Shown here in pieces: positions 64 to 61,094 of a DNA stretch of 64,000 nucleotides. The stretch lies in assembly GCA_036012755.1 (NCBI GenBank), contig DASCPX010000070.1:224001-288000 (forward strand), written 5' to 3'. The notes under the pieces were generated by a model. The model was not told the origin of the DNA, ran no database searches, and saw only the letters and a list, made by a program, of their open reading frames with translations. The first letter of the stretch is position 1; each line of letters opens with the position of its first letter. This DNA is from Myxococcota bacterium. Lineage in GTDB: Bacteria; Myxococcota_A; UBA796; CAJQPC01. Made by a program: the position numbers and the translations under genes.

Positions 64-945
64 ATGCTGCTGGTCCTGCTCGCCTGTTCCAGCGAGCCCC
101 CGGGCGTCGAGGTCCCCCCCATCACCGACGGCGAGGCCTCGGAGGCGGCGGCAGCCGTGATCTGCGAGGCTGCCGCAGAGGCCCGGATGGACTGCGTTGC
201 GGCCGGCAGCGTCGCCACCCTGGGCGAGGTGAAGCTCGAGACCGTCGCCTCGGTAGAGGGCTTCGTCACCTTGGAGCCCAGGACCATCGGCATGGGCGCA
301 AGCGCTCAGCAGATCCCTGGCGAGGTGCAGCTCGTGCTGGCCATCGCGCTGGCCGTGGACGGGGCCCCGCTGATGACCGTCGATGTCTCCGTGGCGGCCC
401 AGGACGTTGACCTGGACAAGGCCCGGTCCGCGGTGTTGGACCAGGCGGTGGAGCGTTGGATGGTGGGCTACGGCCTCGCGGTCCTCGACGCCGTCGCCGA
501 GGATCCGACCGCTCCGGCACTTGCGAGCGTGGGCATGCAGGTGCCAGCCCAGAGTTCTGGCGCCATGCGAGCCTGGGCGGCCTACCCGATGCTGCGGGGT
601 CAGAACCTCGATCCGAGCACCGCCAGCGGCCTCGGCGCAGGGGTGCAGTCGATGCTCGGGGCCCTGTCTCCCTACCTCGACACTATCGACCTGGAGGGGC
701 TCCACAGCGTGCGCGTCAACGCCAGCCTCGGCGGCTCCGGTCCTCCCGGTCCCTGTGGTCTCGTGCCTCCTGTGGCCCTCGCCTCCGGCGCAACCGCGTC
801 GATCGTGCCGTTGTCCGGCGTCGTCGAGGTCGACGGAGAGGCCACCGGCACCATCTGCGAGATGTCCGAGGCCGTCGCCTGGCCCCTGCCTCCCGCTGGC
901 GTCGTGCTGGAGTGGGAGCAGTTCATGGTGCTCCGGGCGGAGTAG
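64..945 (+). CDS. Hypothetical lipoprotein
   Basis: GGAGGAG upstream of ATG; N-terminus MLLVLLAC (lipobox); protein-like composition. The frame is also open back to the window edge. Confidence 0.7.
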   Translation: MLLVLLACSSEPPGVEVPPITDGEASEAAAAVICEAAAEARMDCVAAGSVATLGEVKLETVASVEGFVTLEPRTIGMGASAQQIPGEVQLVLAIALAVDGAPLMTVDVSVAAQDVDLDKARSAVLDQAVERWMVGYGLAVLDAVAEDPTAPALASVGMQVPAQSSGAMRAWAAYPMLRGQNLDPSTASGLGAGVQSMLGALSPYLDTIDLEGLHSVRVNASLGGSGPPGPCGLVPPVALASGATASIVPLSGVVEVDGEATGTICEMSEAVAWPLPPAGVVLEWEQFMVLRAE

Positions 946-949
946 CCGT

Positions 950-3004
950 TCAGGGGTTCGTGACCGTGGGATCCCCGTAGTAGCTGCCGCTGTCGTTGTC
1001 GTACGCGAAGAACCCGATGGTCCCAGCCCCCACCGGACTCGAAGAGGCCGTGTGCGTCAGCACGTCGGTCCCGTCCCAGGACACGGTGATGTCCGCGCCG
1101 TCCACGCTGACGGCCATCACCACGACCTGTGAGTAGCTGATCGTGAAGTCGATAGTGTCGTCAGAGGCCACCACGCTGCACGAACCCGAGGCGCACTGGT
1201 AGAGCTCGACGCGCCCGGTGGGGCTGAAGCGCGAGTAGTACCCGGTCGGGTCGTTCACCCGGGCGATCCAGTAGTTGCTGGAGTCCTGGTAGTCGAAGAC
1301 CAGGCCGAGGTAGTCGGTGGCGGCGCCGCCCATGTAGGCGTTCGCGGTGAAGGTCCAGGTCTCCAGCTCGCCGAGATCCGGACCGAGCAGGAGGGTGGAG
1401 GCGGCGTTGCTCGCCTCGTACACATACGAACCGCTGATGCCCCAGTTCGGCGTGTTGCTCCCGCCCAGGTCGATGATGCTCCAGTCTGCGAGCGACCCCG
1501 TGCTGAAGTCATAATCCCACACAGAGCTGTCGATGCAGTTGTATGTGCCGTCACCGTCGGAGTCCACGCCGTCGGGATCGGTCGTCCCGTCACAGTCGTT
1601 GTCGACCCCGTCACAGACGTCCTCTGCGTCTGGGTTGATGTCTGCGTCCGTGTCGTCACAGTCGTCGTCGTCGTCGACGTAGCCGCTGGGCTGGTCGCAG
1701 GACTCGGTCGTGGAGGTGGCGTCCCCATAGCTGTCGGAGTCGCTGTCCGCGTACCAGGTGTCCGCGTCGAGGGCGTCGTCCTCGTCGGTGTCGCCGTCGC
1801 AGTCGTCGTCCTCGCTGTTGCAGTATTCGTCGGCCCCGGGGTGGACGTCGTCGTCCTCGTCGTCACAGTCTGTGTCGTCAGAGACATAGCCGGAGGGTTG
1901 GCTGCAGTCCGTGATGGATGAGGTCGCGTCGCCGTAGCTGTCCTCGTCGCCGTCTTCGTACCAGGTGTCCGCGTCCGTGGCGTCCTCGTCGGTGTCGCCG
2001 TCGCAGTCGTCGTCGATGGAGTTGCAGACCTCGCTCTCTGTGGGGTTCACATCGGCGCTGGTGTCGTCGCAGTCCGTGTCGTCCTCGACGAAGCCGGAGG
2101 GCTGCGTGCAGGCGACCCTGGAGGTCGTGGCGTCGCCATAGCTGTCGGTGTCGCTGTCGGCGTACCAGGTGGTCGCGTCGATGGCCGAGCTCTCGTCCGT
2201 GTCGCCGTCGCAGTCGTCGTCGATGGAGTTGCAGATCTCGTCCTCTCCGGGGTTCACGTCGCTGTTGGTGTCGTCGCAGTCTGTGTGGTCTTCTGAGAAG
2301 CCGGTGGGGACCGAGCATGCCTCGACCGTGCTCGTGCGATCCCCGTAGCCGTCGGCGTCGACGTCCGCGTAGAAGGTCAGGAGCACGTCCTCGTCGACCT
2401 CGCCATCACAGTCGTTGTCGGCTTCGTCGCAGGCCTCTTCTGCGCCGGGGTTCACGTCGTCACTGGTGTCGTCACAGTCCGTGCCGTCCGGGCTCCAGCC
2501 GTCCGGCGTCTCGCAGGACTCGACTCCGGTCGTCGGGTCGCCGTAGCCGTCCTCGTCGGCGTCGGCGTAGATCCAGAGCAGCACGTCCTCGTCGATGTCC
2601 TCGTCGCAGTCGTTGTCGATCCCGTCGCAGATCTCGAGCGCGCCCGGGTACACGTCCGGGTCGTCGTCGTCGCAGTCGGTGTTGTCGGCGACCTGTCCTC
2701 CCTCGCCCTCGCAGGCCTCTGCTTCGGTGGCGGGTGAGCCATAGGTGTCCCCGTCGGCGTCGTCGTACCAGAGGCCGGTCACGGCCTCGTCGATCTCCTC
2801 GTCGCAGTCGTCGTCCTTGCCGTTGCAGACCTCGTTCGCGTCTGGGTGGACGGTCGCGTCCAGGTCGTCGCAGTCGACGTCCGCGGTGTAGCCGTCGGCG
2901 TCTGCGTCCTGGAGACCGGTCTCGGCGGTCTCCTCGAGTAGTCCGGACTCGATGCGCTCGTAGTCCTTGTTCCGGCAACCGAGCAGTGCGAGCAGGGCGA
3001 TCAT
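950..3004 (-). CDS. Lipoprotein with 7 Cys/Asp-rich putative metal-binding (MopE-type) repeats and a thrombospondin C-terminal-like domain
   Basis: GGAGG 5 nt before ATG 3004; MIALLALLGC; repeats DxDxDGYG..C..DCDD..V.PG..E.C...DNDCDG..DE; C-terminal PNW...DYLGLVFDYQDSSNYW. Confidence 0.85.
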   Translation of the reverse strand: MIALLALLGCRNKDYERIESGLLEETAETGLQDADADGYTADVDCDDLDATVHPDANEVCNGKDDDCDEEIDEAVTGLWYDDADGDTYGSPATEAEACEGEGGQVADNTDCDDDDPDVYPGALEICDGIDNDCDEDIDEDVLLWIYADADEDGYGDPTTGVESCETPDGWSPDGTDCDDTSDDVNPGAEEACDEADNDCDGEVDEDVLLTFYADVDADGYGDRTSTVEACSVPTGFSEDHTDCDDTNSDVNPGEDEICNSIDDDCDGDTDESSAIDATTWYADSDTDSYGDATTSRVACTQPSGFVEDDTDCDDTSADVNPTESEVCNSIDDDCDGDTDEDATDADTWYEDGDEDSYGDATSSITDCSQPSGYVSDDTDCDDEDDDVHPGADEYCNSEDDDCDGDTDEDDALDADTWYADSDSDSYGDATSTTESCDQPSGYVDDDDDCDDTDADINPDAEDVCDGVDNDCDGTTDPDGVDSDGDGTYNCIDSSVWDYDFSTGSLADWSIIDLGGSNTPNWGISGSYVYEASNAASTLLLGPDLGELETWTFTANAYMGGAATDYLGLVFDYQDSSNYWIARVNDPTGYYSRFSPTGRVELYQCASGSCSVVASDDTIDFTISYSQVVVMAVSVDGADITVSWDGTDVLTHTASSSPVGAGTIGFFAYDNDSGSYYGDPTVTNP

Positions 3005-3113: not shown

Positions 3114-4337
3114 TCAGCCGCCCGCGAGTCCCAGGAGGAGCTCGTTGCCGACGCTGTTGTTCTCGCCGGTCGGGAGCTTGCCGGCGTCGTTCTCTCCGCC
3201 GCTTGCGACCGGATCGTAGGGCCCGTTGACCGACCCGTCGTCGTCGTTGTCGGCGTAGGCCCACAGGTAGACGATGCTGTTCGCCGGAGCCGAGAGCCTG
3301 AAGGGCACGCTGGAGTTGCCTGCCAGCTCGTCCCACTCGAAGGACTGCATGTCGTAGGAATCCGCTTCGATCTGCGACAGCGCGATGTCCTCTGAGGGGC
3401 GGTACTTCAGCGCGGCGACGTGCACGCTCGCGCCCTCGTCGACCAGGTCGTCGAAGATGCCGCCGTCGACGGTCTCGACGGTTCCGGAGACCGTGACGAA
3501 GGGCACGACCGCAAACGGGCTCTCGCCGTCATTCAGTGGAATCTGGATGTCGTGGTCGGGGAGGTCCTCGTCCTCGATGGTGATCGGGTTCCCGTCGACG
3601 TCGACCTCTGTGATGTACGCGCCCCAGCTGTCCGAGGGGTCGAAGAGCCAGTTGTCGCCGTCGAAGCCGCCGCCGCCCCCGAGACCGCCGCCACCCCCGC
3701 TTCCGCTGCCGCCGCCGCCGCCGCCGCTTCCGCCACCCCCGCCACTTCCGCCGCTTCCGCCGCAGCTACCACCGCTGCCCTTGCTTCCGCCGTCGTCGTT
3801 GGGGTCTACGCCTTCGGTGACGATCGAGATGTCGACGTCCTCGTGGCCGGAGACCTCCGGGTGCAGCTCGAGCGCGTCGGGGTAGTTCCCGGTCGGCTCG
3901 TCGGGGCCGATGACCCGGTCGTTGGCTTCGTCCAGGATCGCGAAGACGCGGATCTCGCCGCGGGCCTCTGCGGGCATGCTCAGGCTGTAGGAGTCGCCGG
4001 CGGTGCTCGGGTACTTGATGACCGTCTCGTCGAGGTACACGAGGTCGCCGTCGTCGTCCTCGGTGTAGGCGGAGACCCAGATCCCGCCGAAGGGGAAGTC
4101 TCCGTCGAAGGAGTCCTCGAAGCTCGTCTCCTCTCGCTCGCCGTCCGCCTCGATCCAGAGCTCGACGGTGACCGTGCCGTGGATGCTGGTGGACCAGGCG
4201 CCAGGATCCTCGCATGCATCGGGGGCCGCGGTGCTGTCGGTACCCCCATCGCTGTCGTCGCCGGGCAGACCGCTGTCGGTGGTCGGGTCGTCGGGGCCGT
4301 GTCCGCAACCAATGATGGCGAGAAGGATGGTGACCAT
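3114..4337 (-). CDS. Lipoprotein with two similar beta domains joined by a Gly/Ser-rich linker
   Basis: GGGAG before ATG 4337; MVTILLAIIGC; poly-Gly linker at about 3660-3790; related motifs in both halves (AILDEANDRVIGPDEP / AYADNDDDGSVNGPYDP). Confidence 0.7.
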   Translation of the reverse strand: MVTILLAIIGCGHGPDDPTTDSGLPGDDSDGGTDSTAAPDACEDPGAWSTSIHGTVTVELWIEADGEREETSFEDSFDGDFPFGGIWVSAYTEDDDGDLVYLDETVIKYPSTAGDSYSLSMPAEARGEIRVFAILDEANDRVIGPDEPTGNYPDALELHPEVSGHEDVDISIVTEGVDPNDDGGSKGSGGSCGGSGGSGGGGGSGGGGGGSGSGGGGGLGGGGGFDGDNWLFDPSDSWGAYITEVDVDGNPITIEDEDLPDHDIQIPLNDGESPFAVVPFVTVSGTVETVDGGIFDDLVDEGASVHVAALKYRPSEDIALSQIEADSYDMQSFEWDELAGNSSVPFRLSAPANSIVYLWAYADNDDDGSVNGPYDPVASGGENDAGKLPTGENNSVGNELLLGLAGG

Positions 4338-4444: not shown

Positions 4445-5263
4445 ATGCTTCCCCTGTTGTTGGCCTGCTGGCACCACCCCCGTCCTGTCGACCACCTCTA
4501 TCCCGTCGGCGAGGTCGCCATCATCGGCCACCGCGGCGCCCGTGACATGGCCCCGGAGAACACCCTGGCCGCCTTCGAGGTCCCCGCCTCTCGCGGCTTC
4601 GGCTTCGAGCTGGACGTGATGCTCTCGGCCGACGGCGAGCTCGTCGTCATGCACGACGACGACCTCGAGCGGACGACGGACGGTTCGGGCTTCGTCGACG
4701 AGCTCCAGTGGAGCGCGATCGAGGGGCTGGACGCGGGCTCGTCGTTCTCGGCAGACTTCGCTGGCGAGCCCATCCCTCGGCTCGGGGACGCTCTGGCTCA
4801 CTACGGCGAGGACGTGGTCATCGACATCGAGATCAAGTCCCCGCGTGACAAGTCCACCCGGGCCGAGCTCGCTGGCGCGGTGGCGAAGCTCGTCGAACAG
4901 CACGGACTGGAGGATCGAGTGCTCGTCACCAGCTTCGATCCCTATGTGCTGGAGGCCTTGCGCCTCGCCAATCCGGAGATCCGGCGCGGCCAGATCTACG
5001 GGACCTTCGACGGAGCCGATCTGTCACCGGTCTCCAAGCTCATCCTCAAGCGGCTCCTCTTGAACAAGAAGGCCCAGCCCGACGTGCTCGCCGTCGAGGA
5101 CGCTTTCCTGTCTCCCCGCTACGTCCGCAAGATGAACAACAAGGGCTACCGCATCTTCGTGTGGACCGTCGACGACCCCGCGCGCATGGCGGAACTCGCC
5201 GAGTGGGGAGTGGGCGGAGTCATCACGGATCGGCCGGATGTCGCCGAGGACGTCTTGAGGTAG
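4445..5263 (+). CDS. Glycerophosphodiester phosphodiesterase family protein
   Basis: IIGHRGA..APENTLAAF, ELDV..S.DGELVVMHD, IEIK, WTVDD, GVITDRP motifs. Confidence 0.93.
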   Translation: MLPLLLACWHHPRPVDHLYPVGEVAIIGHRGARDMAPENTLAAFEVPASRGFGFELDVMLSADGELVVMHDDDLERTTDGSGFVDELQWSAIEGLDAGSSFSADFAGEPIPRLGDALAHYGEDVVIDIEIKSPRDKSTRAELAGAVAKLVEQHGLEDRVLVTSFDPYVLEALRLANPEIRRGQIYGTFDGADLSPVSKLILKRLLLNKKAQPDVLAVEDAFLSPRYVRKMNNKGYRIFVWTVDDPARMAELAEWGVGGVITDRPDVAEDVLR

Positions 5264-5300: not shown

Positions 5301-7079
5301 ATGTTGCTCTTCGCCCTGTCCTGCTCCGACTACCAGCTCAACTCGAACCAGGACGTCGGGGATCCCTTCGACTCGGGCTACGACGACATCTGCGACAACC
5401 TCGCGGCCGAGGCGGGCGAGGTCGACATGCTCGAGGAGTGCATCATCGAGCCGGTCGTCGGCGGGTGGACGCCGGTGCTGGAGTGGGCGAACGAGGGCCC
5501 GGGCGACACCTACACGACCCCGGTCGTCGGCCACCTCGATGGGGACGACAACCCAGAGGTCGTCGTCGCCAACACGGTCGGTGTGCTCTACGCCCTCGAC
5601 GGCGTCACGGGTGAGATCGAGTGGTCCGGGGGTAGCTTCGGCAGCGAGCCCATGACCGCGGCGATCGGGGATCTCGACGGCGACGGGCTCGCCGAGGTCG
5701 TCGGCAGCGGCTCCTACGGGACCAGCGCGTACCGCGGCGACGGCACCCTGATGTGGCAGACCTCTGCCACCCCGGCTGGCAACACCCCCCAGTGCGGCGC
5801 GGTCGGCATCCACGACCTCGACGGGGACGGGCTCGCCGAGGTCGTCATCGGCAACCTCATCCTCAACGGAGCGGACGGCTCCACCCGGGGGATCGGTGGC
5901 CAGGGCGCTGGCGCCGGGCATCCCTGGGCTGCGCCCATGGGTGTGGCCGCGGACATCGACCTCGACGGTGACCTCGAGGTCGTCGTCGGCAACGCCCTCT
6001 ATGACGCAGACGGCAACACGATCTGGACCAACGGCCAGAGCGATGGCTTCGTCGCCGTGGGGAACTTCGACGACGACGACTACGGCGAGATCGTCGTGAC
6101 GCGAGAGGGCAGCCTGCGCCTGCAGGACGACGACGGCAGCGTCATCTGGCAGCGCTCCGAACTCACCGGCTACACGATCGGGCCGCCCACCGTCGCGGAC
6201 TTCGACGGCGACGGCGAGCCCGAGATCGGTGTCGCCGGAAACGGCGTCTACATGGTCGTCGACACCGACGGCGCCACGATGTGGGGCAACACCACCCAGG
6301 ACTACAGCTCGGGCTTCACGGGCTCGGCGGTCTTCGACTTCGAGGGCGACGGGATCGCAGAGGTCATCTACGCCGACGAGAACGACGTCTGGGTCTACAA
6401 CGGCCTCAACGGCGAGGTGAAGCTGAAGGAGACGCGGCACTCCAGCGCCACCTGCAGCGAGTACCCGGCCATCGCCGACGTCGACGCCGACGGCCACGCC
6501 GAGATCATCTACACCTCCAGCTCCTACACCGGCACCGAGCGCGGCGTTCGTGTCATCGGTGACGCCAACGACAGCTGGCAGAGCGCGCGAGAGGTCTGGA
6601 ACCAGCACGGCTACAGCGTCACGAACGTCGACGACGACGCCTCCATCCCCGCCTCGGTCGAGCCGAACTGGCTGCGCTACAACACCTTCCGCTCCGGAGA
6701 CGTGCTCGCCGGACTGCAGGGTGAGCTTCCGGATCTCACCGGCACCATCGATGTCTGCGAGGTCCACTGCGACGAGGGCGAGGTCGTCGTCTGGGTCCAG
6801 GTCATGAACCAGGGCGTCGCTGATGTCGTCGACCCCTTCCCAGTCGGTGTGTACGCCGTGACGGGAGACGGCCACGTCCTGCTCGAGGAACAGACCGTAG
6901 AGGATGGTGTCCGCGCAGGGCGCTCCAACGACGCCATCGAGTTCCGCGTCGACATCACCGGTCTCGAGATCTACGCGCTCGTCGCCAAGATCGACGGCGG
7001 GGACGAGGAGCTCGGGCTGGTCTCGGACTGTAACGAGTGGAACGACGCGGCGGTCTGGGGTCAGTCGGTCTGCGAGTAG
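5301..7079 (+). CDS. FG-GAP/VCBS repeat beta-propeller lipoprotein with a C-terminal CARDB-like domain
   Basis: MLLFALSC; repeated DLDGDG..EVV; WNQHGYSVTNV; C-terminal V.N.G..D...DCNEWND. Confidence 0.85.
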   Translation: MLLFALSCSDYQLNSNQDVGDPFDSGYDDICDNLAAEAGEVDMLEECIIEPVVGGWTPVLEWANEGPGDTYTTPVVGHLDGDDNPEVVVANTVGVLYALDGVTGEIEWSGGSFGSEPMTAAIGDLDGDGLAEVVGSGSYGTSAYRGDGTLMWQTSATPAGNTPQCGAVGIHDLDGDGLAEVVIGNLILNGADGSTRGIGGQGAGAGHPWAAPMGVAADIDLDGDLEVVVGNALYDADGNTIWTNGQSDGFVAVGNFDDDDYGEIVVTREGSLRLQDDDGSVIWQRSELTGYTIGPPTVADFDGDGEPEIGVAGNGVYMVVDTDGATMWGNTTQDYSSGFTGSAVFDFEGDGIAEVIYADENDVWVYNGLNGEVKLKETRHSSATCSEYPAIADVDADGHAEIIYTSSSYTGTERGVRVIGDANDSWQSAREVWNQHGYSVTNVDDDASIPASVEPNWLRYNTFRSGDVLAGLQGELPDLTGTIDVCEVHCDEGEVVVWVQVMNQGVADVVDPFPVGVYAVTGDGHVLLEEQTVEDGVRAGRSNDAIEFRVDITGLEIYALVAKIDGGDEELGLVSDCNEWNDAAVWGQSVCE

Positions 7080-11678: not shown

Positions 11679-12761
11679 ATGTTCCTGATCGGCCTTGCCT
11701 GCACCGACCCGGCCCCCCTCCCACGTGAACCCAACGAGCTGCCCGACGACGATCTCGACGTCACCTGGCCTGAGCGCCCGGAGGTCGACGCCCTCGTCCT
11801 CGAGGAGATGGAGCGGGCCCACATCCCGGGCGTCGCCGCCTGCACGCTCTCGGACTTCCAGGTGGACTGGTGCCAGGGCTACGGGTGGGCCGAGCTCGAG
11901 ACGGAGACCCCTGCCACCGAGGCCACGCCTTTCTTGCTCGCCAGCGTCTCCAAGACCGTCATCGCCGTGACGGCGCTGGAGGCCAGTCGGGACGGCCAGC
12001 TCGCCCTCGACGCGCCATTGTCGGTGGGCTTCGCGGTCCAGCATCCGGTCGAGGTCGACCACGAGATCACGCCGCGCATGCTCGGGAGCCACGTCGCTGG
12101 CATCGTCGACAACTGGGACGTGCTCGAGGCCGACTACGTCCAAGGCGACTCGGAGGTGCCGCTGGGCCAGTGGTGCGAGAGCTATTTCGTCGAGGGCGGC
12201 GAGCGGTACTCGCGACGACGCAACTTCGGCGACGCCCCCGAGGAGAGCTACGAGTACTCCAACGCCGGGGCGACGCTGCTCGCCTACGGCGTCGAGTACG
12301 CGGTGGGGCAGGACTTCGCGGACTACAGCGAAGAGCGCGTCTTCGGCCCCCTCGCGATGGACGAGACCAGCTGGCACCTGGCCACCCTCGATGCCGAGCC
12401 CGCCATGCCCTACACCTACCGACAGGGCGAGTACGAGGCAGAGGGGCACTATGGCTTCCCCGACTACCCGGACGGTCAGCTCAGGAGCAGCGCTCGGGAC
12501 CTCGGCGTCTTCCTCGAGGCGTGGGGCCGGGACGAGGACCTCCGCGAGATCGCCTGGTCCGGACTCGACGAGGACCAGGGCTTCGTCTGGTACCGCTGGG
12601 AGTTCGCCGGCGAGGAGATCTGGGGCCACAACGGCGGCGAGGTCGGGGTCGCCACGGAGATCGCGCTCTTCGACGACGGGCGAGGCTTCGTGGTCCTGCA
12701 GAACGGTGAGGGGCGCTGGGACTCGCTCTACAAGATCGAGGAGGCGGTCCTGGGGCTGTAG
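11679..12761 (+). CDS. Serine hydrolase, beta-lactamase-related (class C-like) lipoprotein
   Basis: MFLIGLAC; LASVSK (SxxK), YEYSN, GHNGG. Confidence 0.9.
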   Translation: MFLIGLACTDPAPLPREPNELPDDDLDVTWPERPEVDALVLEEMERAHIPGVAACTLSDFQVDWCQGYGWAELETETPATEATPFLLASVSKTVIAVTALEASRDGQLALDAPLSVGFAVQHPVEVDHEITPRMLGSHVAGIVDNWDVLEADYVQGDSEVPLGQWCESYFVEGGERYSRRRNFGDAPEESYEYSNAGATLLAYGVEYAVGQDFADYSEERVFGPLAMDETSWHLATLDAEPAMPYTYRQGEYEAEGHYGFPDYPDGQLRSSARDLGVFLEAWGRDEDLREIAWSGLDEDQGFVWYRWEFAGEEIWGHNGGEVGVATEIALFDDGRGFVVLQNGEGRWDSLYKIEEAVLGL

Positions 12762-12787: not shown

Positions 12788-14737
12788 GTGTCCCTGCTGT
12801 GTCTGTTGGCCTGCGCGCCGGAGCTCCTCGCGCCGCCGGTCCTCGACAACCCCGTCCACGACTTCGATCACGACGGCTTCGCCGAGCTCGACGGGGACTG
12901 CGACGACGCAGCGCCCCTGGTGAACCCCGGCGCGGAGGAGCTCTGCAACGGCCTCGACGACGACTGCGATGGTCTCTCGGACGAGCCCGACGCCAGCGAC
13001 GCCCGGACCTTCTGGCTGGACACCGACGGCGACGGCTTCGGCACCACCGCGGTGCCGGCCTGCTCCCAGCCCCCGACAGCGTCGATCCTGGCCGGGGACT
13101 GCGATGACGCGGACCCCGCCATCAACCCCGGGGCGCTCGAGTTCTGCAACACCCTCGACGACGACTGCGACGGCGAGATCGACGAGGAGGACGCCACCGA
13201 CTGCTCCGTCTACTACGAGGACCTCGACGGGGATGGCTACGGCACACAGATCGAGGCCTGCCTTTGCGAAGCCACCGGGGACTTCAGCGCCACGTCCTCG
13301 GGCGACTGCGACGACAGCACGGACAGCGCCAGTCCCGACGCCGCCGAGGTCTGTGGAAACGGCCAGGACGACGACTGTGACGGGCTGTCGGTCAACAGCT
13401 GCTTCACCGACACGGTCTCCGCAGCGGATGCGGATCTGCGTCTCCGCGCAGAGGAGGGCGGGGACCGTCTGGGGCACGCCGCGGCGCTGGCGGACCTCGA
13501 CGGCGATGGGGATCTCGAGGTCATCCTGGGGGCCGTGAACCACGAGGGCGCCGAGCCCCAGTCCGGTCGGGCCTACGTGCTCGAGGGCCCCATCCACGAC
13601 AAGGCCTCCGGGGGGGTCGTCGATGTCGAGGCCGCCGAGTGGATCTGGGACGGCGCCGGCCTGAATCACCGCGTCGGCTCCTCGTTCGCGGTGTTGGACA
13701 GCGACGACGACGGCGTGTCCGAGCTGGTCGTTGGCGCGCTGGGCGCTGACGACAGCGGTGAGCTGGCCGGGGCCGCCTATGTCGTCTCGTGGCCACCCTC
13801 GGGCTCGGGAGCCATGGAGGACATCGCCGATGTCACCCTCCTCGGGCGAGGCGCCGAGGACAAGCTCGGAGGCTGGGTCTGTGGTCTCGGAGATGTCGAC
13901 GGGGACGGCCTGGACGACCTCCTCGTCGGAGCCGCACGGGCGACCTACGACTTCGACAAGGAAGGCGCCGCGTACCTGGTCCTCGGTCCGCTCGATCAGG
14001 GCGGGGTCGCGGACGAGCTGTCCGCCCTCGTGCTCACCGGAGAGTCCGACAGCTCGGCACTCGGTTCCGCCATGATGCCTGCCGGGGACCTCGACGCCGA
14101 CGGCCTCGACGACATCGTGCTGGGGGCGTACCAGTTCGCCGACACCGACAACGGCGCGGCCTATGTCATCTCGGGCACGGTTCGCGGGACCCATCGCGTC
14201 GGCGACGTCGCCCTCGTTCGCCTGCTCGGTGACGCCGCCGGCCAGCGCATGGGCGTGGGGATCACCGGCGACGTGGACGTGGACGGAGACGGCCAGGTCG
14301 ACCTCGTCGTCGCTGCGTCCCGAAACGACGAGGCGGGAGAAGAGGCAGGCATCGTCTATGTCTTCCACGGTCCGATCACGGCCCAGCTCGACCTCGAGGA
14401 GGCGGACTCGGTGCTCTGGGGTGACCGCAAGAACCAGCGCGCCGGGGGCCTGCTGCTCAGCGCGGGCGACTTCGACGGCGCGGGGCCCGACGAGCTCCTG
14501 GTGCATGCCCAGAACGCCCTCTACCTCGTGCACACGCCGCTGTTGGAAGAGGACCTCGTCCGTGAGACCTCGACGATGATCGAGGGAGAGGACCCCGTGC
14601 ACTCCTTCGGCTCCAGCGTCGCCCTCGGCGACCTCACCTACGACGGCGTCCCGGATCTGCTCGTCGGCGCCGAGTCCCACCCCGAGCAGGGCATGGAGAG
14701 CGGCGCGGCATACATCTTCCACGGGAGCACGTGGTGA
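12788..14737 (+). CDS. Lipoprotein with MopE-type repeats and FG-GAP (integrin-alpha-like) propeller repeats
   Basis: TATCCT-N6-GTG; MSLLCLLAC; 3 DCDD..E.C...DDDCDG repeats; GD.DGDG.DDLLVGA....G.AY repeats. Confidence 0.87.
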   Translation: MSLLCLLACAPELLAPPVLDNPVHDFDHDGFAELDGDCDDAAPLVNPGAEELCNGLDDDCDGLSDEPDASDARTFWLDTDGDGFGTTAVPACSQPPTASILAGDCDDADPAINPGALEFCNTLDDDCDGEIDEEDATDCSVYYEDLDGDGYGTQIEACLCEATGDFSATSSGDCDDSTDSASPDAAEVCGNGQDDDCDGLSVNSCFTDTVSAADADLRLRAEEGGDRLGHAAALADLDGDGDLEVILGAVNHEGAEPQSGRAYVLEGPIHDKASGGVVDVEAAEWIWDGAGLNHRVGSSFAVLDSDDDGVSELVVGALGADDSGELAGAAYVVSWPPSGSGAMEDIADVTLLGRGAEDKLGGWVCGLGDVDGDGLDDLLVGAARATYDFDKEGAAYLVLGPLDQGGVADELSALVLTGESDSSALGSAMMPAGDLDADGLDDIVLGAYQFADTDNGAAYVISGTVRGTHRVGDVALVRLLGDAAGQRMGVGITGDVDVDGDGQVDLVVAASRNDEAGEEAGIVYVFHGPITAQLDLEEADSVLWGDRKNQRAGGLLLSAGDFDGAGPDELLVHAQNALYLVHTPLLEEDLVRETSTMIEGEDPVHSFGSSVALGDLTYDGVPDLLVGAESHPEQGMESGAAYIFHGSTW

Positions 14738-15927
14738 TCTGGATGTCGCTGTCCCTCGCCGCCCCCCTCGCCATCCACGGGGCGGGCGAGGCCGAGCGCG
14801 CTGCGGAGGTCCTCGGGGAGGCCGGGGCCGGAGACGTCGAGCTGCGCTCCTTTGCCGAGGTCGTGCCCCTAGGAGAGCCCCGGCTCGAGGGCCGAGGCGT
14901 GCTCCTGGTCTGTGAGGGCGAGACCACCCACCGCTACCAGGTGGAGACGGCGCTCTCCACGGCGGAGGCCCACCTCGCCTACGTGAAGTGGGAGGAGGCG
15001 CGCGCGGCGCTGGAGGAGGCGGAGGCGGCCATGCTCTGCCTCGCGGAGCCGATCGACGCGGCGACCGCGGCTCGCGTCCACTACCTCTTCGGCGTCACCG
15101 CTGCCTTCCTCGGCGACGAGGTGGAGGCGCGCTCCTCCTTCGCCCGAGCCCACGTGCTCCAGCCGGGGCTGGTCTGGGATACGCAGTTCCCGCAAAGCGG
15201 GCAGGATCTCTTCGAGCAGGAGGGTCTCCTCGTTGCCGAGCGGCCCTTCGTCGACCTGCTGGTCGTGCCCGAGCCCCGCGCTGCGAAGCTGACGGTCGAC
15301 GGTCGACGGATCTATGCGGCCGGCCGGCGCGTGGAGCTGCGCGCGGGGACCCACATCGTGCAGGGGCCCGGCTGGACGGTCGAGGTCGATCTGTTCCCCG
15401 ACTCGGCCCCGGTGTTCGTCGTGCCAGAGGCCATCGAGGACATAGGCGGTGACTGGCTGATCGACGAGGACGCCTGCCGCTCCCTCGACCAGATCGTCGA
15501 CGCCCAGCCGCCCCTGTTCTTCGTCGCTGGGGACCAGGCCTGGATGAGGGACGGCGAGGGCTGGGAGGCCCTCTCGGACGGAGCCGCCGCGAGCTGCCTG
15601 GACCTCGACCCTCCGCCCACGATCGAGGGCTTTCGCCTGCCCCAGGAGGGTGCGCCTCGCGTGGTGGCGCTGGGTGGAGCCGGGGCGCTGGTCGGTGGTG
15701 GGGGCGTGGCGGTGGCCGGATACCTCGTGGCGGCGCGGGCTGCCCAGGGCGCTGACACCTGGGAGCACTACCAGGCCGCGAAGCCCACCCACGCTCGCGG
15801 CAGCGCCATGCTCTACGGTGGCGAGGCTGTGGCCATCGCCGGAGCCCTCGCCCTTGGTGGAGCCATCGTGGCCGACCGCACGGACCGGGTCCAGCTCGGG
15901 CCTGGGGGCCTGGTGGTGCCGTGGTGA
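14734..15927 (+). CDS. Secreted/membrane protein with TPR-like and PEGA-like segments
   Basis: GTGA overlap with the upstream stop; helical N-half; LTVDG....L.AG.H.VQ; C-terminal hydrophobic hairpin ending GLVVPW. Confidence 0.65.
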   Translation: MIWMSLSLAAPLAIHGAGEAERAAEVLGEAGAGDVELRSFAEVVPLGEPRLEGRGVLLVCEGETTHRYQVETALSTAEAHLAYVKWEEARAALEEAEAAMLCLAEPIDAATAARVHYLFGVTAAFLGDEVEARSSFARAHVLQPGLVWDTQFPQSGQDLFEQEGLLVAERPFVDLLVVPEPRAAKLTVDGRRIYAAGRRVELRAGTHIVQGPGWTVEVDLFPDSAPVFVVPEAIEDIGGDWLIDEDACRSLDQIVDAQPPLFFVAGDQAWMRDGEGWEALSDGAAASCLDLDPPPTIEGFRLPQEGAPRVVALGGAGALVGGGGVAVAGYLVAARAAQGADTWEHYQAAKPTHARGSAMLYGGEAVAIAGALALGGAIVADRTDRVQLGPGGLVVPW

Positions 15928-22970: not shown

Positions 22971-23602
22971 TGGCGACCGCGGCCGTGCCCCTGACCCTGA
23001 AGACCCTGCCGTCCGCGGACGACGATGACGGTGACGGCTTCGGCGCGCTCGACTGTGACGACACCGACGCCAGCGTCTTCCCGGGCGCCGACGAGGCGCC
23101 GGACTGGCTCGACAACGACTGTGACGGCGACGACGACTGCGACGGGTTGGTCGATGACGCCTGTGTCGGCGAGGTCTCGACCTCGATCGTCGGTGATCTC
23201 CGGCTCTCCCAGACCACCATCGAGAGCGGCCAGAGCCTGACCTTGTCGGTCTGGCTCGACGGGCCTGGGCAGCTGTTGTTCACCCTGCCGGAGGGCGAGA
23301 CCATGGAGTCCGACTACGCCACGTGGACCGCACCGGCCGTGGAGGAGCCCACCAGCTTCGTCGTTGCGGTCGAGGTCTACCAGGACGGGGAGCGCACGGA
23401 CTTCCGGACGGGCGAGCTCGGTGTCTGGCCTCCGGACACCCTCGCCGTGGCCGAGCCCGAGCTGGTCGAGGTCCCCTCCGGTTGCTCGACGAGCCGTGGA
23501 CCAGCTGGCACGGTCCTTGTCATCGCCGGATTGCTGCTCGTCGTTAGAAACCGGCGATGCTCTTCGCACTGCTCGCCTGCAACGGCCCCCAGACCTTCCT
23601 GA
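22970..23602 (+). CDS. MopE-type repeat protein with a MYXO-CTERM-like tail, probably 5'-truncated
   Basis: DGDGF...DCDD....FPGA.E....DNDCDG; SGCST...TM...RNRR; no signal peptide. Confidence 0.55.
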   Translation: MATAAVPLTLKTLPSADDDDGDGFGALDCDDTDASVFPGADEAPDWLDNDCDGDDDCDGLVDDACVGEVSTSIVGDLRLSQTTIESGQSLTLSVWLDGPGQLLFTLPEGETMESDYATWTAPAVEEPTSFVVAVEVYQDGERTDFRTGELGVWPPDTLAVAEPELVEVPSGCSTSRGPAGTVLVIAGLLLVVRNRRCSSHCSPATAPRPS

Positions 23603-31188: not shown

Positions 31189-31233
31189 CGGGCCTCCAGT
31201 GTCGCTGGCTATCCTGTCCATGGGAGGCCCTCC

Positions 31234-46996: not shown

Positions 46997-48347
46997 TCAC
47001 GTGGTCTGGGACCCGGTCGATCTCTTCGAGCTGGTGGGCGATCCAGTCCCCCGAGCCCGTGATCACCCAGATGCGTCGCTCGGGGACGAGCCACTTCCTG
47101 GCAGCGATCGCGACGTCCGCGGGGGTGACCGCCTCCAAGGCGTCCAGGTCGCGGTCCCAGATATCGAGCCCCAGTGACCATGCCTGGGCGAGCAGCAGCT
47201 GCTGACACACGAGCTCGATGCGCGAGAAGTCCTGGGCCTGCTCGAGCAGCAGGTGGGCCATCGCTCGGTCGACCTCTGCTTGCGACACGCCCTCCTCCTC
47301 GATTTGGTCCAGGTGCTCCTCGGCGCCGAGGAAGGCCTCGCCGATGTCGTCGAGCGCGGTGTCGAGGTCGATGCGGAGCATTCCCAGGCCCGTCCAGGCG
47401 CGCATGTCTCCGTGGACCCCGTATGTGAGCCCGCGTTGCTCGCGGAGGTCCATGCTCATGCGGCTGTCGAAGCTGCCCGCGAGGATGCCCCACAGGACGC
47501 GCACGGGCGCCTCGTCGGGGTGGCCCGCTGGCGGCCCCTCGAGCGCTACCGTGAGCTTGGCGACCTCGAAGCCCGTGCGGTCGATCAGCCAGCGTCCGCC
47601 TTGGCCTTCGATGTCCTGGTAGGGCTCGGCCGGGGTGTCGCCCCGGAGCTGGCCGAAGTGCTGCTCCAACAGCGGCATCAGCTCCTCGACGTCGGCGTCG
47701 CCCGCCACGCTGAGGCTGGCCCGGCCCTCTCGCAGGACTCGCGCGACGAGGTCCTCTGCGTCCCGGGCGGTGAGCTCGCCGAGGTCATCCGTCCTGCTCG
47801 CATGTCGCAGGCTGTGGCCGATGGGGAAGAAGGCGTGGTTCACCGCGCGCTCGTGTACCGAGTGGATGCGGTACTCGATCGTCTCCCTGTGGGTGGTCCA
47901 GTAGTCGAGGTAGATCCTGGCCACCTTCCGGCGGAAGCGCGGCTCGAACAGGGCCTCGGCGACCAGGGCGAGGGCCTCGGCTTCGCGCCCCCGAGGCACG
48001 CGCAGGCTGGCTGACAGGCGGCTCTGGGTGAGCCTGAGGTCCACCCGGGCGCCCAGGCTCTGCAGGGCCGACTGCCACGCCGTCGCGTCACGCCGCTGCG
48101 TGTCCGTCCCCAAGAGCTCAGTGGCGAGGGTCGCAAGCAGCTCGCCCTGCTCGAGGTCCGCGTACTCAGCGGTGACGCCGAGCTTGATCTGCACCATCGG
48201 GATGTCGTCGCGGCGGGCGAAGATCACCGGTGTGCCGGAGGACAGGGCGTACTCCTCGAGCTCGGGGAAGACCGGGCGCTCCGGTGGCGTGGCCACAGGG
48301 GCCAACCGAGGCTCGGTCGCCAGGGCCAGGCAGCAGAGCAAGATCAC
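46965..48347 (-). CDS. M16 family peptidase, non-catalytic subunit
   Basis: GTGA-coupled start MILLCCLALA; FDSR...LREQRGLTYG; no HXXEH. Confidence 0.85.
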   Translation of the reverse strand: MILLCCLALATEPRLAPVATPPERPVFPELEEYALSSGTPVIFARRDDIPMVQIKLGVTAEYADLEQGELLATLATELLGTDTQRRDATAWQSALQSLGARVDLRLTQSRLSASLRVPRGREAEALALVAEALFEPRFRRKVARIYLDYWTTHRETIEYRIHSVHERAVNHAFFPIGHSLRHASRTDDLGELTARDAEDLVARVLREGRASLSVAGDADVEELMPLLEQHFGQLRGDTPAEPYQDIEGQGGRWLIDRTGFEVAKLTVALEGPPAGHPDEAPVRVLWGILAGSFDSRMSMDLREQRGLTYGVHGDMRAWTGLGMLRIDLDTALDDIGEAFLGAEEHLDQIEEEGVSQAEVDRAMAHLLLEQAQDFSRIELVCQQLLLAQAWSLGLDIWDRDLDALEAVTPADVAIAARKWLVPERRIWVITGSGDWIAHQLEEIDRVPDHVITAEEISAER

Positions 48348-54205: not shown

Positions 54206-54420
54206 CTACCACACCGGGGCGCAGTAGCCCTCGGTCAGCCTGTCGCAGGACGTCTCTTCGATGCAGGCGGCCCAGAGCTCTTCCTGGGCGCGGTTCTCGA
54301 GCCCACCGACTCGTTCGAGCCCGTGAGCTCATAGGGGTCGTAGTCCCCGACCTCACCCCGTTCCTGGCGGGCTTGCTGGCAGGGTTGCGTGAGGAAGCAG
54401 GAGGACAACAGCAGGATCAT
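54206..54420 (-). pseudogene. Small Cys-rich lipoprotein with one frameshift
   Basis: MILLLSSC start; an alternative frame gives LENRAQEELWAACIEETSCDRLTEGYCAPVW* ending at 54206. Confidence 0.5.
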
Positions 54421-58075: not shown

Positions 58076-59183
58076 CGGCGCCGCACCAGCAGGAGACCCA
58101 GCACGGTGACCAGCGCCCCGGCGGCCCCGCAGCCACCGCTCATCCACGTGACGAGCTCCGGGCGCTCGGGGAGCCCGGTGTCGTCCTCGAGGTCGCTGTC
58201 ATCGGGTCCAGAGTCATCGGGCGGATCGCTCTCGTCTGGCTCGCCGGTGTCGTGGGGCTTCGAGATGTCGGCCCCTCGCGACCAGGGAACTCCGGTCGGG
58301 TTGGCGTCTGGCCCGCCGAAGGCGCCCATGTCGTTGCGGCTGCCGTCCGGGTCGTTGTTCGTAGTCGCAGGGTCGCCCCGGTTGATCGCCGGCGAGGTCT
58401 CCTGCAGCCCCGGCGGGAAGGTGCAGCTGAAGGGATCGAAGCCCTCGTCGAACTTCGGATCCTCGCCCTGGATGTCGCCGGCTCCGACAGCCAGGCTGTC
58501 GCTGTTGTCGTTGTTCCACAGCGTGTAGTCCTCGTCCACCGCGTTGGCCTCCCCGCTGATCCCGACACCGCCTGTGTTCGCGAAGGTCACGTTCCACTCG
58601 AAGGCCAGGGCCCCGCCCTTCCGCCCGATGTTGGAGTTCCACGTTGAGGTGGTGATGGTCGTCGAGGTGCTGACGGCGCGAATCGAGCCGCTGGCCTCCT
58701 CAGAGCTGCTGTTGCCGAAGTTGCAGCCCTTGACCGTGAGCGAGTCGAGTCCGTCCACGTCGATGTCCGGCGCGGTGCCCACGCTCTGGTTGGCGTCGAA
58801 GGTCGTGTTGATGACGCGGAGGTCGAAGGTGCCGCTGCCGTTGCTGCCCTTGGCGCGGATCGGACCCGAGCTCGTGATCTCCGAGGCCTCGACGCTCACG
58901 CTGAGTGCGTAGACGCCGCTGGAGGCGGTGGCGAAGATGGTGTCGCCTGTGAGCCCGTTGGCCTTCAGGTTCTGGAAGGTCACGGAGGTGTCGTCGGTCT
59001 TGCTGACGATGGAGAGGTCCTTTTCGATGGCGATGGGCGGCTCTCGACCGAAGCGTCGTAGCTCGGGTCCACCAAGAGCGTGTCGCCGTGTCCTGCCGCC
59101 GCGTACGCCTCGTGGAAGGTGTAGGTGCTGCCGTCGACCACGTAGGAGTCGGTCGCGCTCGCTGCGCTGATCCACCAGAGCAT
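58072..59183 (-). pseudogene. Secreted beta-helix-like surface protein with a MYXO-CTERM-like tail; one frameshift near 59040
   Basis: TATCGT-N6-ATG; MLWWISAASA; SPAI..GDP...DPDGSRNDMGAFGGP; GGC..TM..RRR. Confidence 0.65.
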
Positions 59184-59413: not shown

Positions 59414-59974
59414 CTAGTCGCCCTCGCCAATCTGACCGCAGTTGTGGGCCTCGAAGCGCGCCCTCCACCACTCGGTGTCGATGGTGCCGGTGACCAGCTG
59501 GACATCCCCAGAGGTGATCTCGAGGCGGCCGAGGAGGTAGCTGCTCTGCCAGATGCGCTCGTCCGCGAAGACTGCCGAGGCCATCGTGCGGCGGTCGACG
59601 CTCCTCTGCTGGTCGTCTTCGTCGGAGTAGTCGTAGTAGTAGTAGCCGCCGTAGCCGTAGGCGCCCTGGAAGTACTCGCCGACCCAGCCGATGTTCTCGC
59701 CGGTGTTGTTCCACCACTGGACGTCGACGACCGCTCCAGAGGCCGTCCAGGTGATCGAGTCCCGCTGCTCCGTCGTGCCGGCGAGCTCGGCCTCCAGGTC
59801 CTCGCAGGTGTAGTCCGAGTCGTCGACGAGGAGCAGCGTTGCGCTGCCGGTGCCGGCTTCTGGAGTCGACCACTGGGACTCGGCGAAGAGCGCCGTCTTC
59901 AGCGAGCCGAGCGAGAACGGCGCGTCTCGGGTCGCCTTCATGGTGTTCGTGCACGACAGCAACAGGAGCGTCAT
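59414..59974 (-). CDS. Lipoprotein, paralog 3 of a tandem triplet
   Basis: ATGA-coupled; MTLLLLSC; PF.L, GW.G.Y, A.F.A..CG. Confidence 0.8.
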   Translation of the reverse strand: MTLLLLSCTNTMKATRDAPFSLGSLKTALFAESQWSTPEAGTGSATLLLVDDSDYTCEDLEAELAGTTEQRDSITWTASGAVVDVQWWNNTGENIGWVGEYFQGAYGYGGYYYYDYSDEDDQQRSVDRRTMASAVFADERIWQSSYLLGRLEITSGDVQLVTGTIDTEWWRARFEAHNCGQIGEGD

Positions 59975-60531
59975 CGGCCGCTGTGCCCGGCGTAGTAGTC
60001 CCCGCTCATCTTGCCGCAGTACTCGGCGTCGAAGGTGGCTTCGATGGCCCGGGTCTCCACGTGGCCCTCGATGCTGCCGCTGTTGTCGTCTATGCGAGCG
60101 TAGCCACCAGCGCGGCCGAGCCAGGTCTGGCCGTCGGCGAAGGGGAGCACCCAGGCGCCGCGCTCGAGCGACCCTCGCTCCGACTCCGCCGTGGAGAACA
60201 CTGCGTAGTCGCCCTCCCAGCCGGCGTTCTCGCCCTGGTCGTGAGACCAGGAGAAGATGACGACCAGGCCGATGGAGTCCGAGAACAGCGAGCCACGGCC
60301 AGCCAGCAGGGTGGAGGTGTAGTAGCTGTCGCCGAAGGCCGCCTCGTACTGCTCGCAGCTGACCTCGTCGTCGCTCATCAGGAGCATCCCCACCCCCTGG
60401 CCCGACTCGGCGCTCGAGGCCCCGGTCTCCAGGAAGAGGGCGCTGTCGATCTCCCGGACCTCGAAGGGCACGAGCTCCGGGTCCACCTCGACGTCGTTCT
60501 TCGGCGTGCATGCGGCGAGGAGCCAGGTCAT
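59971..60531 (-). CDS. Lipoprotein, paralog 2 of a tandem triplet
   Basis: ATGA-coupled; MTWLLAAC; same motifs as its neighbours. Confidence 0.8.
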   Translation of the reverse strand: MTWLLAACTPKNDVEVDPELVPFEVREIDSALFLETGASSAESGQGVGMLLMSDDEVSCEQYEAAFGDSYYTSTLLAGRGSLFSDSIGLVVIFSWSHDQGENAGWEGDYAVFSTAESERGSLERGAWVLPFADGQTWLGRAGGYARIDDNSGSIEGHVETRAIEATFDAEYCGKMSGDYYAGHSGR

Positions 60532-61094
60532 CCGCTGTCCCCCGTGTCCCACCCCGGCTCCTGGGTGCCGCAGTTTCGCGCGCTGAAACGGGCATCGACG
60601 CTCTCGTGGTCGATGGTGCCGCTGGTGACCTCGGCGGTGGAGTCCTCGACCTCGAGCAGGCCCATCTGGCCGTCGAGCCCCCAGGCGGTGCCTCCGCTGT
60701 AGACGTCCAGCCAGAAGCGGCGGTAGACCGCGCCCTCACGACCGCGCTCGAGCACCGTCACGCCGCTGCCGTAGGTGCCCTGCCAGCCGGCGCGACCGTC
60801 GCCTTCCCGGTAGTCCTCCCAGTCGAAGGGGGTGTAGGACCAGGAGACCCTCGCGACCACGTGTTCACCCTCCCAGACGGGCGTCCGGTCGTCGTCGCTC
60901 AGCCAGCCAGCGTCCCGTATTTCGGCGCACCCGACATTGGTCGAGGAGAGCATCAGTGTTGCCCGTCCCCAGTCCGTCTGCTCGGTGGTCGTGGCGTCGG
61001 CGACGAAGACACTCGAGACCATCCGACCCAGCTCGAAGGGCGCGTCGCCTCGCGGCTTCATGGTGTTCGCGCAGGCGATCAACAGGGGCAGCAC
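60528..61094 (-). CDS. Lipoprotein, paralog 1 of a tandem triplet
   Basis: TAGGGT-N6-GTG 61094; MLPLLIAC; same motifs as its neighbours. Confidence 0.8.
   Translation of the reverse strand: MLPLLIACANTMKPRGDAPFELGRMVSSVFVADATTTEQTDWGRATLMLSSTNVGCAEIRDAGWLSDDDRTPVWEGEHVVARVSWSYTPFDWEDYREGDGRAGWQGTYGSGVTVLERGREGAVYRRFWLDVYSGGTAWGLDGQMGLLEVEDSTAEVTSGTIDHESVDARFSARNCGTQEPGWDTGDSG

Follow-up and report, generated by a model that had tools for sequence, protein, structure and literature searches.

Analysis of a 64,000-nucleotide window of a Myxococcota genome (G000:C70:224001-288000, where G000 is our label for the window's own genome, a 6.73-Mb assembly of 250 contigs, 96% complete, GC 67-71%), and of the genome around it, suggests that a marine Myxococcota clade probably exports most of its lipoproteins, as well as many periplasmic and outer-membrane proteins, by signals of 7-11 residues that carry no charge and that would be the shortest natural Sec signals used routinely across a proteome. 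The sequencing runs that contain the region's DNA are marine metagenomes, and no RNA run is listed for 19001-29000 of the window. The first-pass annotation of the window had pointed out 18 open reading frames (ORFs) opening with half-length, mostly hydrophobic leaders that lack a basic n-region and end in a lipobox Cys, had held their starts unlikely to be mis-called, and had proposed that a modified Sec/Lgt/LspA route serves them. The half-length signals and their starts were upheld by 461 genes in which a short signal is forced, by start motifs, by a step in coding signal and by public gene calls; the modified route was not, for the reasons given with the export machinery below.

Translation starts across the genome and in the window

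Genes were called with our own codon-usage gene caller, trained on long ORFs with high GC at third codon positions (GC3), which gave 5,738 genes covering 92% of the genome. A lipobox was scored where position -3 was one of LVIFMAWT and position -1 one of GAS, with none of DERKQNHP from -5 to -1. By this rule 1,041 genes have a lipobox near their 5' end, and they comprise (i) 461 genes in which even the 5'-most ATG, GTG or TTG forces the Cys to positions 6-12, with a mode of 8, (ii) 193 genes whose nearest start already lies more than 12 residues off, and (iii) 387 genes in which either a short or a longer start could be used. For 153 genes of the first group the Cys position is capped at 14 whatever codon initiates. 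The same pattern (start codon, 4-10 uncharged residues, lipobox) occurs at 193 sites in 1,602,811 internal codons, so that its frequency at gene starts (400 of the 3,163 that are unambiguous) is far above chance. When the 3,163 genes with an unambiguous start were considered, the lipobox Cys was found at position 12 or earlier in 400, at positions 13-40 with a Lys or Arg in 118 (Tat-type RR signals, of the twin-arginine translocation pathway, among them), and otherwise in 53. This genome-wide distribution of Cys positions, which the first-pass annotation had called for and which we computed from sequence-defined starts, is bimodal, indicating that canonical and ultra-short signals coexist in one cell.

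A search independent of the lipobox found a hydrophobic 7-mer from residue 1 in 558 of the 3,163 unambiguous-start genes (17.6%), against 32-88 genes at each of positions 3-12. Within 16 residues, 353 of these 558 short-signal genes have [AGS]C; the other 205 have non-lipobox leaders, mostly of 7-12 residues, running into small residues and then P, E, D or Q (e.g. MIALLLALAFA/QEPP). For the 195 non-lipobox leaders of at most 16 residues, read without a formal cleavage-site model, the residue at -1 is Ala in 92, that at -3 is Ala in 55 and Leu in 59, and the one after the site is P, E, D or Q in 149. The twin-arginine motif is absent from the short leaders.

The sequence around the called starts changes character at the start codon itself. 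In 120 short-signal genes with at least 30 open upstream codons, GC3 is 0.546 upstream and 0.882 downstream, and the codon log-odds are -17.4 upstream and +12.6 downstream; all 120 upstream segments score zero or below. At 338 starts with a single candidate codon, Shine-Dalgarno (SD)-like tetramers cluster at -12 to -8 and the -10 element TANNNT at -12/-13. Between -14 and -11, TANNNT precedes 112/558 short-signal genes, 258/2,605 other genes and 1/2,897 internal ATG or GTG codons; for the SD-like element the counts are 249/558, 1,014/2,605 and 545/2,897, respectively. TANNNT abutting the start is twice as frequent in short-signal genes as in other genes. About a fifth of the short-signal genes look leaderless, with a predicted -10 box abutting the start codon, and such boxes account for the many in-frame TAG and TAA stops three codons upstream: a stop at exactly this distance forms a spike, with 89 of the 461 forced-short genes, because a -10 box at -12 puts its TA(A/G) in frame (in the window at 5301, 21201 and 61094). 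At 11679 and 12788 the box reads as a Tyr codon (TAC and TAT) and not as a stop. Leaderless TANNNT promoters would account for the pinning of the starts but not for the shortness of the signals. The nearest in-frame stops upstream of the 461 genes are TGA (277), TAG (138) and TAA (46), and genes end in TGA (3,916), TAG (1,569) and TAA (153). Reassignment of a stop codon was rejected on this ground, as all three stops both terminate genes and precede short starts.

In the window, where leaders are named by the position of their first nucleotide, all 18 lipobox peptides translate at the positions first reported and end in [AGS]C. Eleven lie on the + strand and 7 on the - strand (3004, 4337, 21201, 54420, 59974, 60531, 61094); 12 start with ATG and 6 with GTG, and, as had been remarked, one leader alone (25194, MLRLSFLAC) contains a basic residue. 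For 9 of the 18 (4445, 5301, 12788, 21201, 23557, 27573, 28750, 31234, 54420) there is no ATG, GTG or TTG back to the preceding in-frame stop, which stands 2-3 codons upstream at 4445, 5301, 21201, 23557 and 54420; a stop 3 codons upstream is found at 61094 too. The sole alternative for 15924 and 61094 is a GTG 1-2 codons upstream, and for 64, 11679 and 59974 the alternatives all lie at least 40 codons upstream, where the codon model shows no coding signal. The remaining four (3004, 4337, 25194, 60531) have alternatives 4-13 codons upstream that would give leaders of 14-24 residues. The earlier remark that many starts are pinned by a -10 box or a stop/start overlap agrees with what was found: TANNNT at -12 (5301, 11679, 12788, 21201, 61094), SD-like GGAG or GAGG at -12 to -8 (64, 3004, 4337, 27573, 31234), and a start codon overlapping the stop of an upstream same-strand ORF (15924, 27573, 28750, 59974, 60531). 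The four named leaders resembling signal peptidase I (SPase I) substrates were also located (30631-, 59183-, 48347-, 14734+), and the Tat signal at 21257 is indeed normal (VSRPSRRDLLRG...AFA). The leaders are as follows.

64..87, +: MLLVLLAC leader of a 293-aa protein with no Pfam match; SD-like GGAGG at -11 to -8; nearest upstream in-frame start a GTG 51 codons off, in non-coding-like sequence; exact protein in public gene calls
2975..3004, -: MIALLALLGC leader of a 684-aa MopE-repeat protein; SD-like element at -10; alternative ATG 4 codons upstream gives MEVPM... (14 aa); short form exact in public gene calls
4305..4337, -: MVTILLAIIGC leader of a 407-aa protein; ambiguous start; alternative GTG 13 codons upstream gives a 24-aa leader with K, R, D and E
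4445..4468, +: MLPLLLAC, heading a 272-aa GDPD phosphodiesterase; TAG in frame 3 codons upstream; in public calls
5301..5324, +: MLLFALSC leader of a 592-aa FG-GAP protein; TAG 3 codons upstream; TANNNT at -12 (leaderless type); in public calls
11679..11702, +: MFLIGLAC leader of a beta-lactamase-family protein, 360 aa; TANNNT at -12; in public calls
12788..12814, +: (GTG) SLLCLLAC leader of a 649-aa MopE/FG-GAP protein; 26 open upstream codons without a start; TANNNT at -12
14734..14760, +: (GTG) IWMSLSLA/AP, SPase I-like leader of a 397-aa protein; GTGA overlap with ORF 12788..14737; SD-like element at -10
15924..15944, +: (GTG) ITWLAC, heading a 592-aa FG-GAP/MopE protein; start overlapping the stop of ORF 14731..15927 (GTGA); sole alternative a GTG 1 codon upstream
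21175..21201, -: (GTG) SWLFLLAC leader of an RCC1-repeat protein, 279 aa; TGA and TAG 3-4 codons upstream; TANNNT at -12
21257..21337, +: VSRPSRRDLLRGLGATAALVFARPAFA, a canonical Tat signal on a 524-aa protein with a Beta-lactamase2 domain; contrast case, with SRRDLL
23557..23580, +: MLFALLAC leader of an Exo_endo_phos protein, 343 aa; TAG 3 codons upstream; in public calls
25194..25220, +: MLRLSFLAC leader of a 188-aa protein; ambiguous start; alternative TTG 8 codons upstream gives 17 aa; short form in public gene calls
27573..27596, +: (GTG) IALLLAC, heading a 274-aa ZnuA-type periplasmic metal-binding protein; SD-like element at -12; 107 open upstream codons without a start; GTGA overlap with the upstream gene's stop
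28750..28779, +: MALLLLIFAC, heading a 37-aa ORF; doubtful gene; codon score 27 against a cut-off of 25
30602..30631, -: MILLVASALA/HP, SPase I-like leader of a 192-aa protein; start overlapping the stop of ORF 30628..31221 (ATGA); 52 open upstream codons without an alternative start
31234..31257, +: MWLLFIAC leader of a 280-aa FG-GAP protein; SD-like element at -11; 71 open upstream codons without a start; estimated coding start at the same codon; in public calls
48318..48347, -: (GTG) ILLCCLALA/TE, SPase I-like leader heading a 460-aa protein; start overlapping the stop of the gene upstream (GTGA); other possible starts 31, 63 and 136 codons upstream
54397..54420, -: MILLLSSC, heading a 61-aa low-complexity ORF; doubtful gene, missed by the codon-usage caller
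59154..59183, -: MLWWISAASA/TD leader; TANNNT at -12; gene with an apparent frameshift about 45 codons in
59951..59974, -: MTLLLLSC leader of the third tandem paralogue; ATGA overlap with the upstream paralogue's stop; in public calls
60508..60531, -: MTWLLAAC leader of the second tandem paralogue; ATGA overlap; alternative GTG 7 codons upstream
61071..61094, -: (GTG) LPLLIAC leader of the first tandem paralogue; TAG 3 codons upstream; TANNNT at -12

The last three head a run of tandem paralogous predicted lipoproteins of 186-188 aa (59417-61094, - strand) with no Pfam match and with similar mature N-termini (C[TA]NTMK...DAPF); the estimated coding start coincides with the called codon at both 59974 and 60531. 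The small ORFs 28750-28863 and 54238-54420 have perfect short leaders and weak or no coding signal, and could be small lipoproteins or chance. At 58980-59183 (- strand) the coding signal shifts from frame 0 to frame 2 near 59050, into the long ORF 58072-59214; an assembly frameshift, a pseudogene or a programmed shift may lie behind the change.

The first 20,000 nt of the window were further compared with contigs of four DNA runs, which agree around several starts: contigs from other sequencing runs spanning 3744-6466, 6440-12967 and 13158-16114 list no change at the start regions. Contig depth in other metagenomes is 10-100 times higher over 1335-2668, 12674-13340 and 16009-16675, with many joints, owing to MopE-type Cys/Asp repeat DNA common to many organisms in those samples.

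Could the starts nevertheless be mis-called, the true upstream starts (canonical, rare or reached through a reassigned stop) restoring signals of 15-25 residues with Lys or Arg? The 4 of 18 window cases with in-frame starts 4-13 codons upstream and the 387 ambiguous lipobox genes leave room for longer signals, and the short form of 4337 is the one not to appear in the public gene calls, which have the same start as ours for the other 9 of 10 ATG-initiated window proteins. Against this stand the 461 genes with no canonical start that would place the Cys beyond position 12, of which 153 could never exceed 14 with any codon; a coding signal that sets in at the called start; and SD-like and -10 elements locked to that same codon. 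As all three stops end genes and occur upstream, no single reassignment would rescue longer signals. We consider this explanation very improbable, and it appears largely refuted; by the codon, motif and open-frame evidence, the short starts are correctly called.

Composition, cargo and distribution of the short signals

The 461 forced-short signals are almost free of charge, with Lys or Arg in 7 and Asp or Glu in 2, and residue 2 is Leu, Ile or Phe in 344. Compared with 58 canonical signals of relatives, (i) the Cys lies at a median position of 8 (interquartile range, IQR, 7-9) instead of 16 (IQR 15-18.75), (ii) the uncharged run, Met included, is of 7 residues instead of 12, (iii) the hydrophobicity is 2.73 versus 1.96 on the Kyte-Doolittle (KD) scale per residue, and (iv) Leu makes up 45% of residues versus 29%. 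Over mature residues +2 to +21 the net charge is -3.0, and 90% of these stretches are negative; control 20-mers have a net charge of -1.1, with 59% negative.

The nature of the proteins that carry such signals was assessed in the window, where 10 of the 16 proteins submitted had Pfam matches (ZnuA, GDPD, Beta-lactamase, Exo_endo_phos, RCC1 and MopE/FG-GAP repeats), and in an unselected set made up of the short-signal genes lying within one 20-kb piece in the first 200 kb of contigs C9 and C16 (55 of 60, as 5 spanned piece borders). In this second set, 29 of 55 had Pfam matches, including SBP_bac_5, SBP_bac_11, Penicil_amidase, Peptidase_S46, M23 and M15, as well as Sulfatase, Thioredox_DsbH, Omp85, CsgG, Trypsin_2 and MopE/FG-GAP; Amidohydro_2, Cupin, Kelch and FKBP_C, which also occur among them, are families not specific to a location. 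Core cytoplasmic families (ribosomal, tRNA-synthetase or similar) numbered 0 among the 55. Judged by these matches, the short-signal proteins belong to envelope-type families. A SurA-like protein carries a short leader too, and among 10 genes with the Plug domain of TonB-dependent receptors, 2 have canonical signals with Lys or Arg and at least 3 have uncharged leaders of 11 residues; one forced receptor leader, MLYILATSAIA/EDE, starts with TTG preceded by GGGAGG. At G000:C127:60944-61267 (- strand), a Plug-domain receptor lies in a long open frame, 339 codons in, and the N-terminal part of that frame is membrane-protein-like.

In related genera, the aligned homologues keep predicted signals that bear Lys or Arg and end at the same Cys. 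The ZnuA orthologues of 16 related genomes comprise 11 with short uncharged leaders (e.g. MLTFLLAC, with a stop 3 codons upstream, MFWIWLAC and VVILLAC), 4 with Lys or Arg in leaders of 15-37 residues (e.g. MRPSMSTRHALVALLTLAAC), and 1 that is unclear. In homologue pairs found by BLAST, with the Cys aligned, MMRLLPLLALTLFAC of a relative faces MILVALLAC of G000, MTRPVLILLIATTAC faces MILLLAAC, and MWRSIVVSTALFLVAC faces MLLSLLFSC. Many signals of trait-poor relatives are already short, with an n-region of one residue ('MR...').

To gauge how far the trait reaches, 19 relatives were sampled at 24-240 kb each. Genes were called with the G000 codon model in genomes above 62% GC, since self-training had picked the wrong frame in several high-GC genomes, and with self-trained models below that value. 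Each line gives the genome (other G numbers denote related genomes, g numbers genera), the genes with a hydrophobic 7-mer at residue 1 among those with an unambiguous start, and then the number of forced-short lipoboxes.

G002 (same genus): 18/105; 18
G012 (g4): 8/56; 10
G007 (g6): 6/36; 6
G014 (g7): 3/19; 5
G004 (g3): 5/100; 3
G006 (g5): 2/40; 3
G013 (g5): 0/23; 3
G003 (g2): 1/40; 3
G008 (g7): 1/28; 0
G009: 3/40; 2
G010: 2/36; 1
G035 (f3): 0/51; 1
G026: 0/16; 2
G040: 2/30; 0
G029: 2/12; 0 (weak sample, called-coding fraction 0.56)
G036: 0/10; 0 (weak sample, called-coding fraction 0.58)
G024: 0/16; 0
G033: 2/15; 2
G037: 1/7; 1

On these predicted starts, three of the genera sampled, all from one uncultured Myxococcota family, show the trait strongly, and within that family it is graded, with more than one origin or partial loss. 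Two further genomes of the same phylum, at 60 kb each, had 0 forced-short lipoboxes in either. In a SecY tree, which rests on a single gene and is thus a rough guide, g1 and g4 come out as sisters, with g3 and g2 next to the pair and g6 apart. Three lipoprotein ORFs of G002 and G000 are 99-100% identical, upstream frames included, and the other pairs 34-76%; near-identical segments may be present in both assemblies, or cross-binning may have occurred.

Export machinery and the proposed route

G000 has the standard export components, among them SecA, SecY, SRP, Lgt and LspA, which the first-pass annotation had singled out for inspection: one SecY, one SecA, Ffh, FtsY and the RNA of the signal recognition particle (SRP; 52.6 bits), the protein matches all being ordinary and full-length, together with three S26 signal peptidases, two deformylases, two LspA and five Lgt (full-length family matches). 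At G000:C59:100000-102591 two lspA and two lgt genes stand in a row, and further lgt genes lie on C203, C40 and C127. Across 41 genomes of the order, LspA has 1-2 matches in 40 and none in G023, and Lgt has 3-6 matches in 41/41; tandem lspA pairs are present in trait-poor genomes too (G035, G029, G025). Passages of PMC8048626 give four lsp genes for M. xanthus. Duplication of LspA or Lgt as the cause of the trait was rejected, as the copy numbers do not follow it. In an alignment of 30 SecY sequences (tblastn-anchored frames), in which seven strong-trait genomes were set against the rest, no more than 2 columns, both conservative (L to V, G to A), distinguish the former. In the family matches, copy numbers and SecY columns compared, we thus see no apparent sign of remodelled machinery, and of the earlier proposal the half-length signals stand, and the modified Sec/Lgt/LspA route is not borne out by these comparisons.

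We regard it as quite likely that the short leaders are real N-termini acting as minimal Sec-type signal peptides. The basic n-region would have been lost and the core reduced to about 4-5 hydrophobic residues followed by a lipobox (L-A/S-G/A-C) or by A-x-A; targeting to SecYEG and insertion would be carried by the unusually hydrophobic, Leu-rich core, offsetting its short length, and the N-in/C-out orientation would follow from the charge gradient between the N-terminus and the strongly acidic early mature region. The Met would be kept, given the bulky residue that follows it, and would probably lose its formyl group. Lgt and LspA, or SPase I, would act at the outer membrane face, needing just the lipobox or A-x-A, with normal processing thereafter. 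The trait itself would have arisen by a graded, lineage-specific drift from an order-wide n-region of one residue ('MR...'), lost in the window's genus and in two other sampled genera.

Several considerations weigh against minimal Sec-type signals. Export in E. coli is strongly impaired by removal of n-region charge or by shortening of the core, and a core of about 7 residues is too short for a helix that spans the bilayer. Export, cleavage and lipidation are predicted here from sequence, and transcription starts from motifs; at 35% of the short-signal starts (197/558) SD-like and -10 elements are both missing. Since lipoproteins at large commonly have an acidic, Pro-rich tether behind their Cys, the argument from charge is suggestive at most. 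The gene caller, the lipobox rule and the criterion of an unambiguous start are all home-made, and the samples of relatives are small and come from kin that are not independent. Finally, in passages of PMC13616975, the shorter type II signals that metallo-beta-lactamases of cultured myxobacteria carry gave no outer-membrane localisation in E. coli, a result in view of which ordinary machinery may be insufficient, and which may leave space for host-specific adaptation.

Two other explanations accept the short starts. The leaders could be real N-termini that are not cleaved Sec signals, in proteins that are cytoplasmic, that keep an uncleaved greasy N-terminal tag or that use an unrelated route; some Pfam matches are, after all, not envelope-specific (Amidohydro_2, Cupin, Kelch, FKBP_C), and we know of no working signal with a core as short as 7 residues. 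Such N-termini would not be expected to place a lipobox Cys or A-x-A at a fixed short distance from the start (-1 Ala in 92/195 non-lipobox leaders), nor to align that Cys with the lipobox Cys of the canonical signals of homologues; moreover, obligately exported families (ZnuA, SBP_bac_5, TonB-dependent receptors, Omp85, SurA-like) have short leaders, and none of the 55 unselected genes belongs to a core cytoplasmic family. This explanation strikes us as improbable.

Greater weight, though still that of a doubtful candidate, is given to the possibility that altered or extra machinery is needed, such as a re-tuned SecY, SecA or SRP, a special Lgt or LspA paralogue, a different membrane or a targeting factor not yet recognised. 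The tandem pair of LspA genes with a tandem Lgt pair behind it, and the three more Lgt elsewhere, fit this possibility, as does the restriction of the trait to some genera, expected of a co-evolved system; what mainly keeps it alive is the localisation result in E. coli, where, according to passages of PMC13616975, short myxobacterial type II signals are not handled as lipoproteins. It is opposed by the order-wide occurrence of multi-copy LspA (1-2) and Lgt (3-6), trait-free genomes included, and by the four lsp genes that PMC8048626 mentions for M. xanthus, by the single SecY with 2 conservative columns among 30 sequences, by a complete SRP, and by the presence of canonical and ultra-short signals in one genome, since any such machinery must still accept both types. 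Minimal signals read by standard machinery remain the explanation that we favour.

Should the short leaders indeed serve export across this clade, the n-region and about half of the h-region would be dispensable in vivo, and a Leu-rich core with an acidic mature N-terminus would suffice for standard SecYEG, SRP, Lgt and LspA, or else an unrecognised adaptation of targeting or membrane would be at work. The finding questions what bacterial export machinery minimally needs: if short leaders export about 70% of the unambiguous-start lipoproteins and about 200 other proteins in one genome, the minimal requirements of Sec, of orientation and of Lgt/LspA need revisiting. Envelope proteomes of such lineages would then probably be under-predicted, and very short natural leaders would be on offer for secretion engineering. 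The sister genera with 'MR...' signals on homologous proteins provide a natural comparison for compensating features.

Comparison with known export signals

The tripartite signal of n-, h- and c-regions is a textbook rule that is built into predictors, and the canonical lipoprotein Cys lies at roughly 15-25 (about 15-35 in the PROSITE-style rule). In passages of PMC9360617 and PMC8048626, what defines both Sec and lipoprotein signals is a positively charged n-region followed by an h-region and then a c-region or lipobox, and the h-region is described as shorter in lipoprotein signals than in SPase I signals; the region labelling of SignalP 6.0, as a passage of PMC9287161 describes it, presupposes no fewer than 2 residues for the n-region and 3 for the c-region. 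The main texts of the literature searched hold no description of proteome-wide uncharged signals of 7-11 residues, the nearest being a remark in PMC13616975 that the type II signals of myxobacterial metallo-beta-lactamases are 'considerably shorter' than that of NDM-1. The same source notes that a short signal would put the cleavage site deep in the membrane, yet that LspA cleaves within the membrane, and a passage of PMC9360617 on a model of LspA with globomycin has the lipobox extended at the catalytic dyad. The case of PMC13616975 differs from ours in concerning one enzyme family in cultured genera, in passages that give neither lengths nor a proteome-wide claim.

The -10 elements resemble those of the leaderless mRNAs of Deinococcus deserti, where, in a passage of PMC4007540, a TAnnnT box abuts the start codon; TANNNT stands 12-13 nt before the start here as well, in our case as a sequence motif. 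With the canonical Sec/SPase I type (n-h-c regions, A-x-A), about 200 genes share an order of Met and 7-10 hydrophobic residues, small residues and then Q, E, D or P, but these leaders total 9-12 residues and have neither an n-region nor a separate polar c-region. Similarly, like the canonical Sec/SPase II type (E. coli Lpp), the lipoprotein signals of the window's genome are hydrophobic N-termini that end in a lipobox [LV][ASTVI][GAS]C, in a genome that encodes Lgt, LspA and Sec; in contrast to that type, they do so without a basic n-region and with the Cys at positions 6-12.

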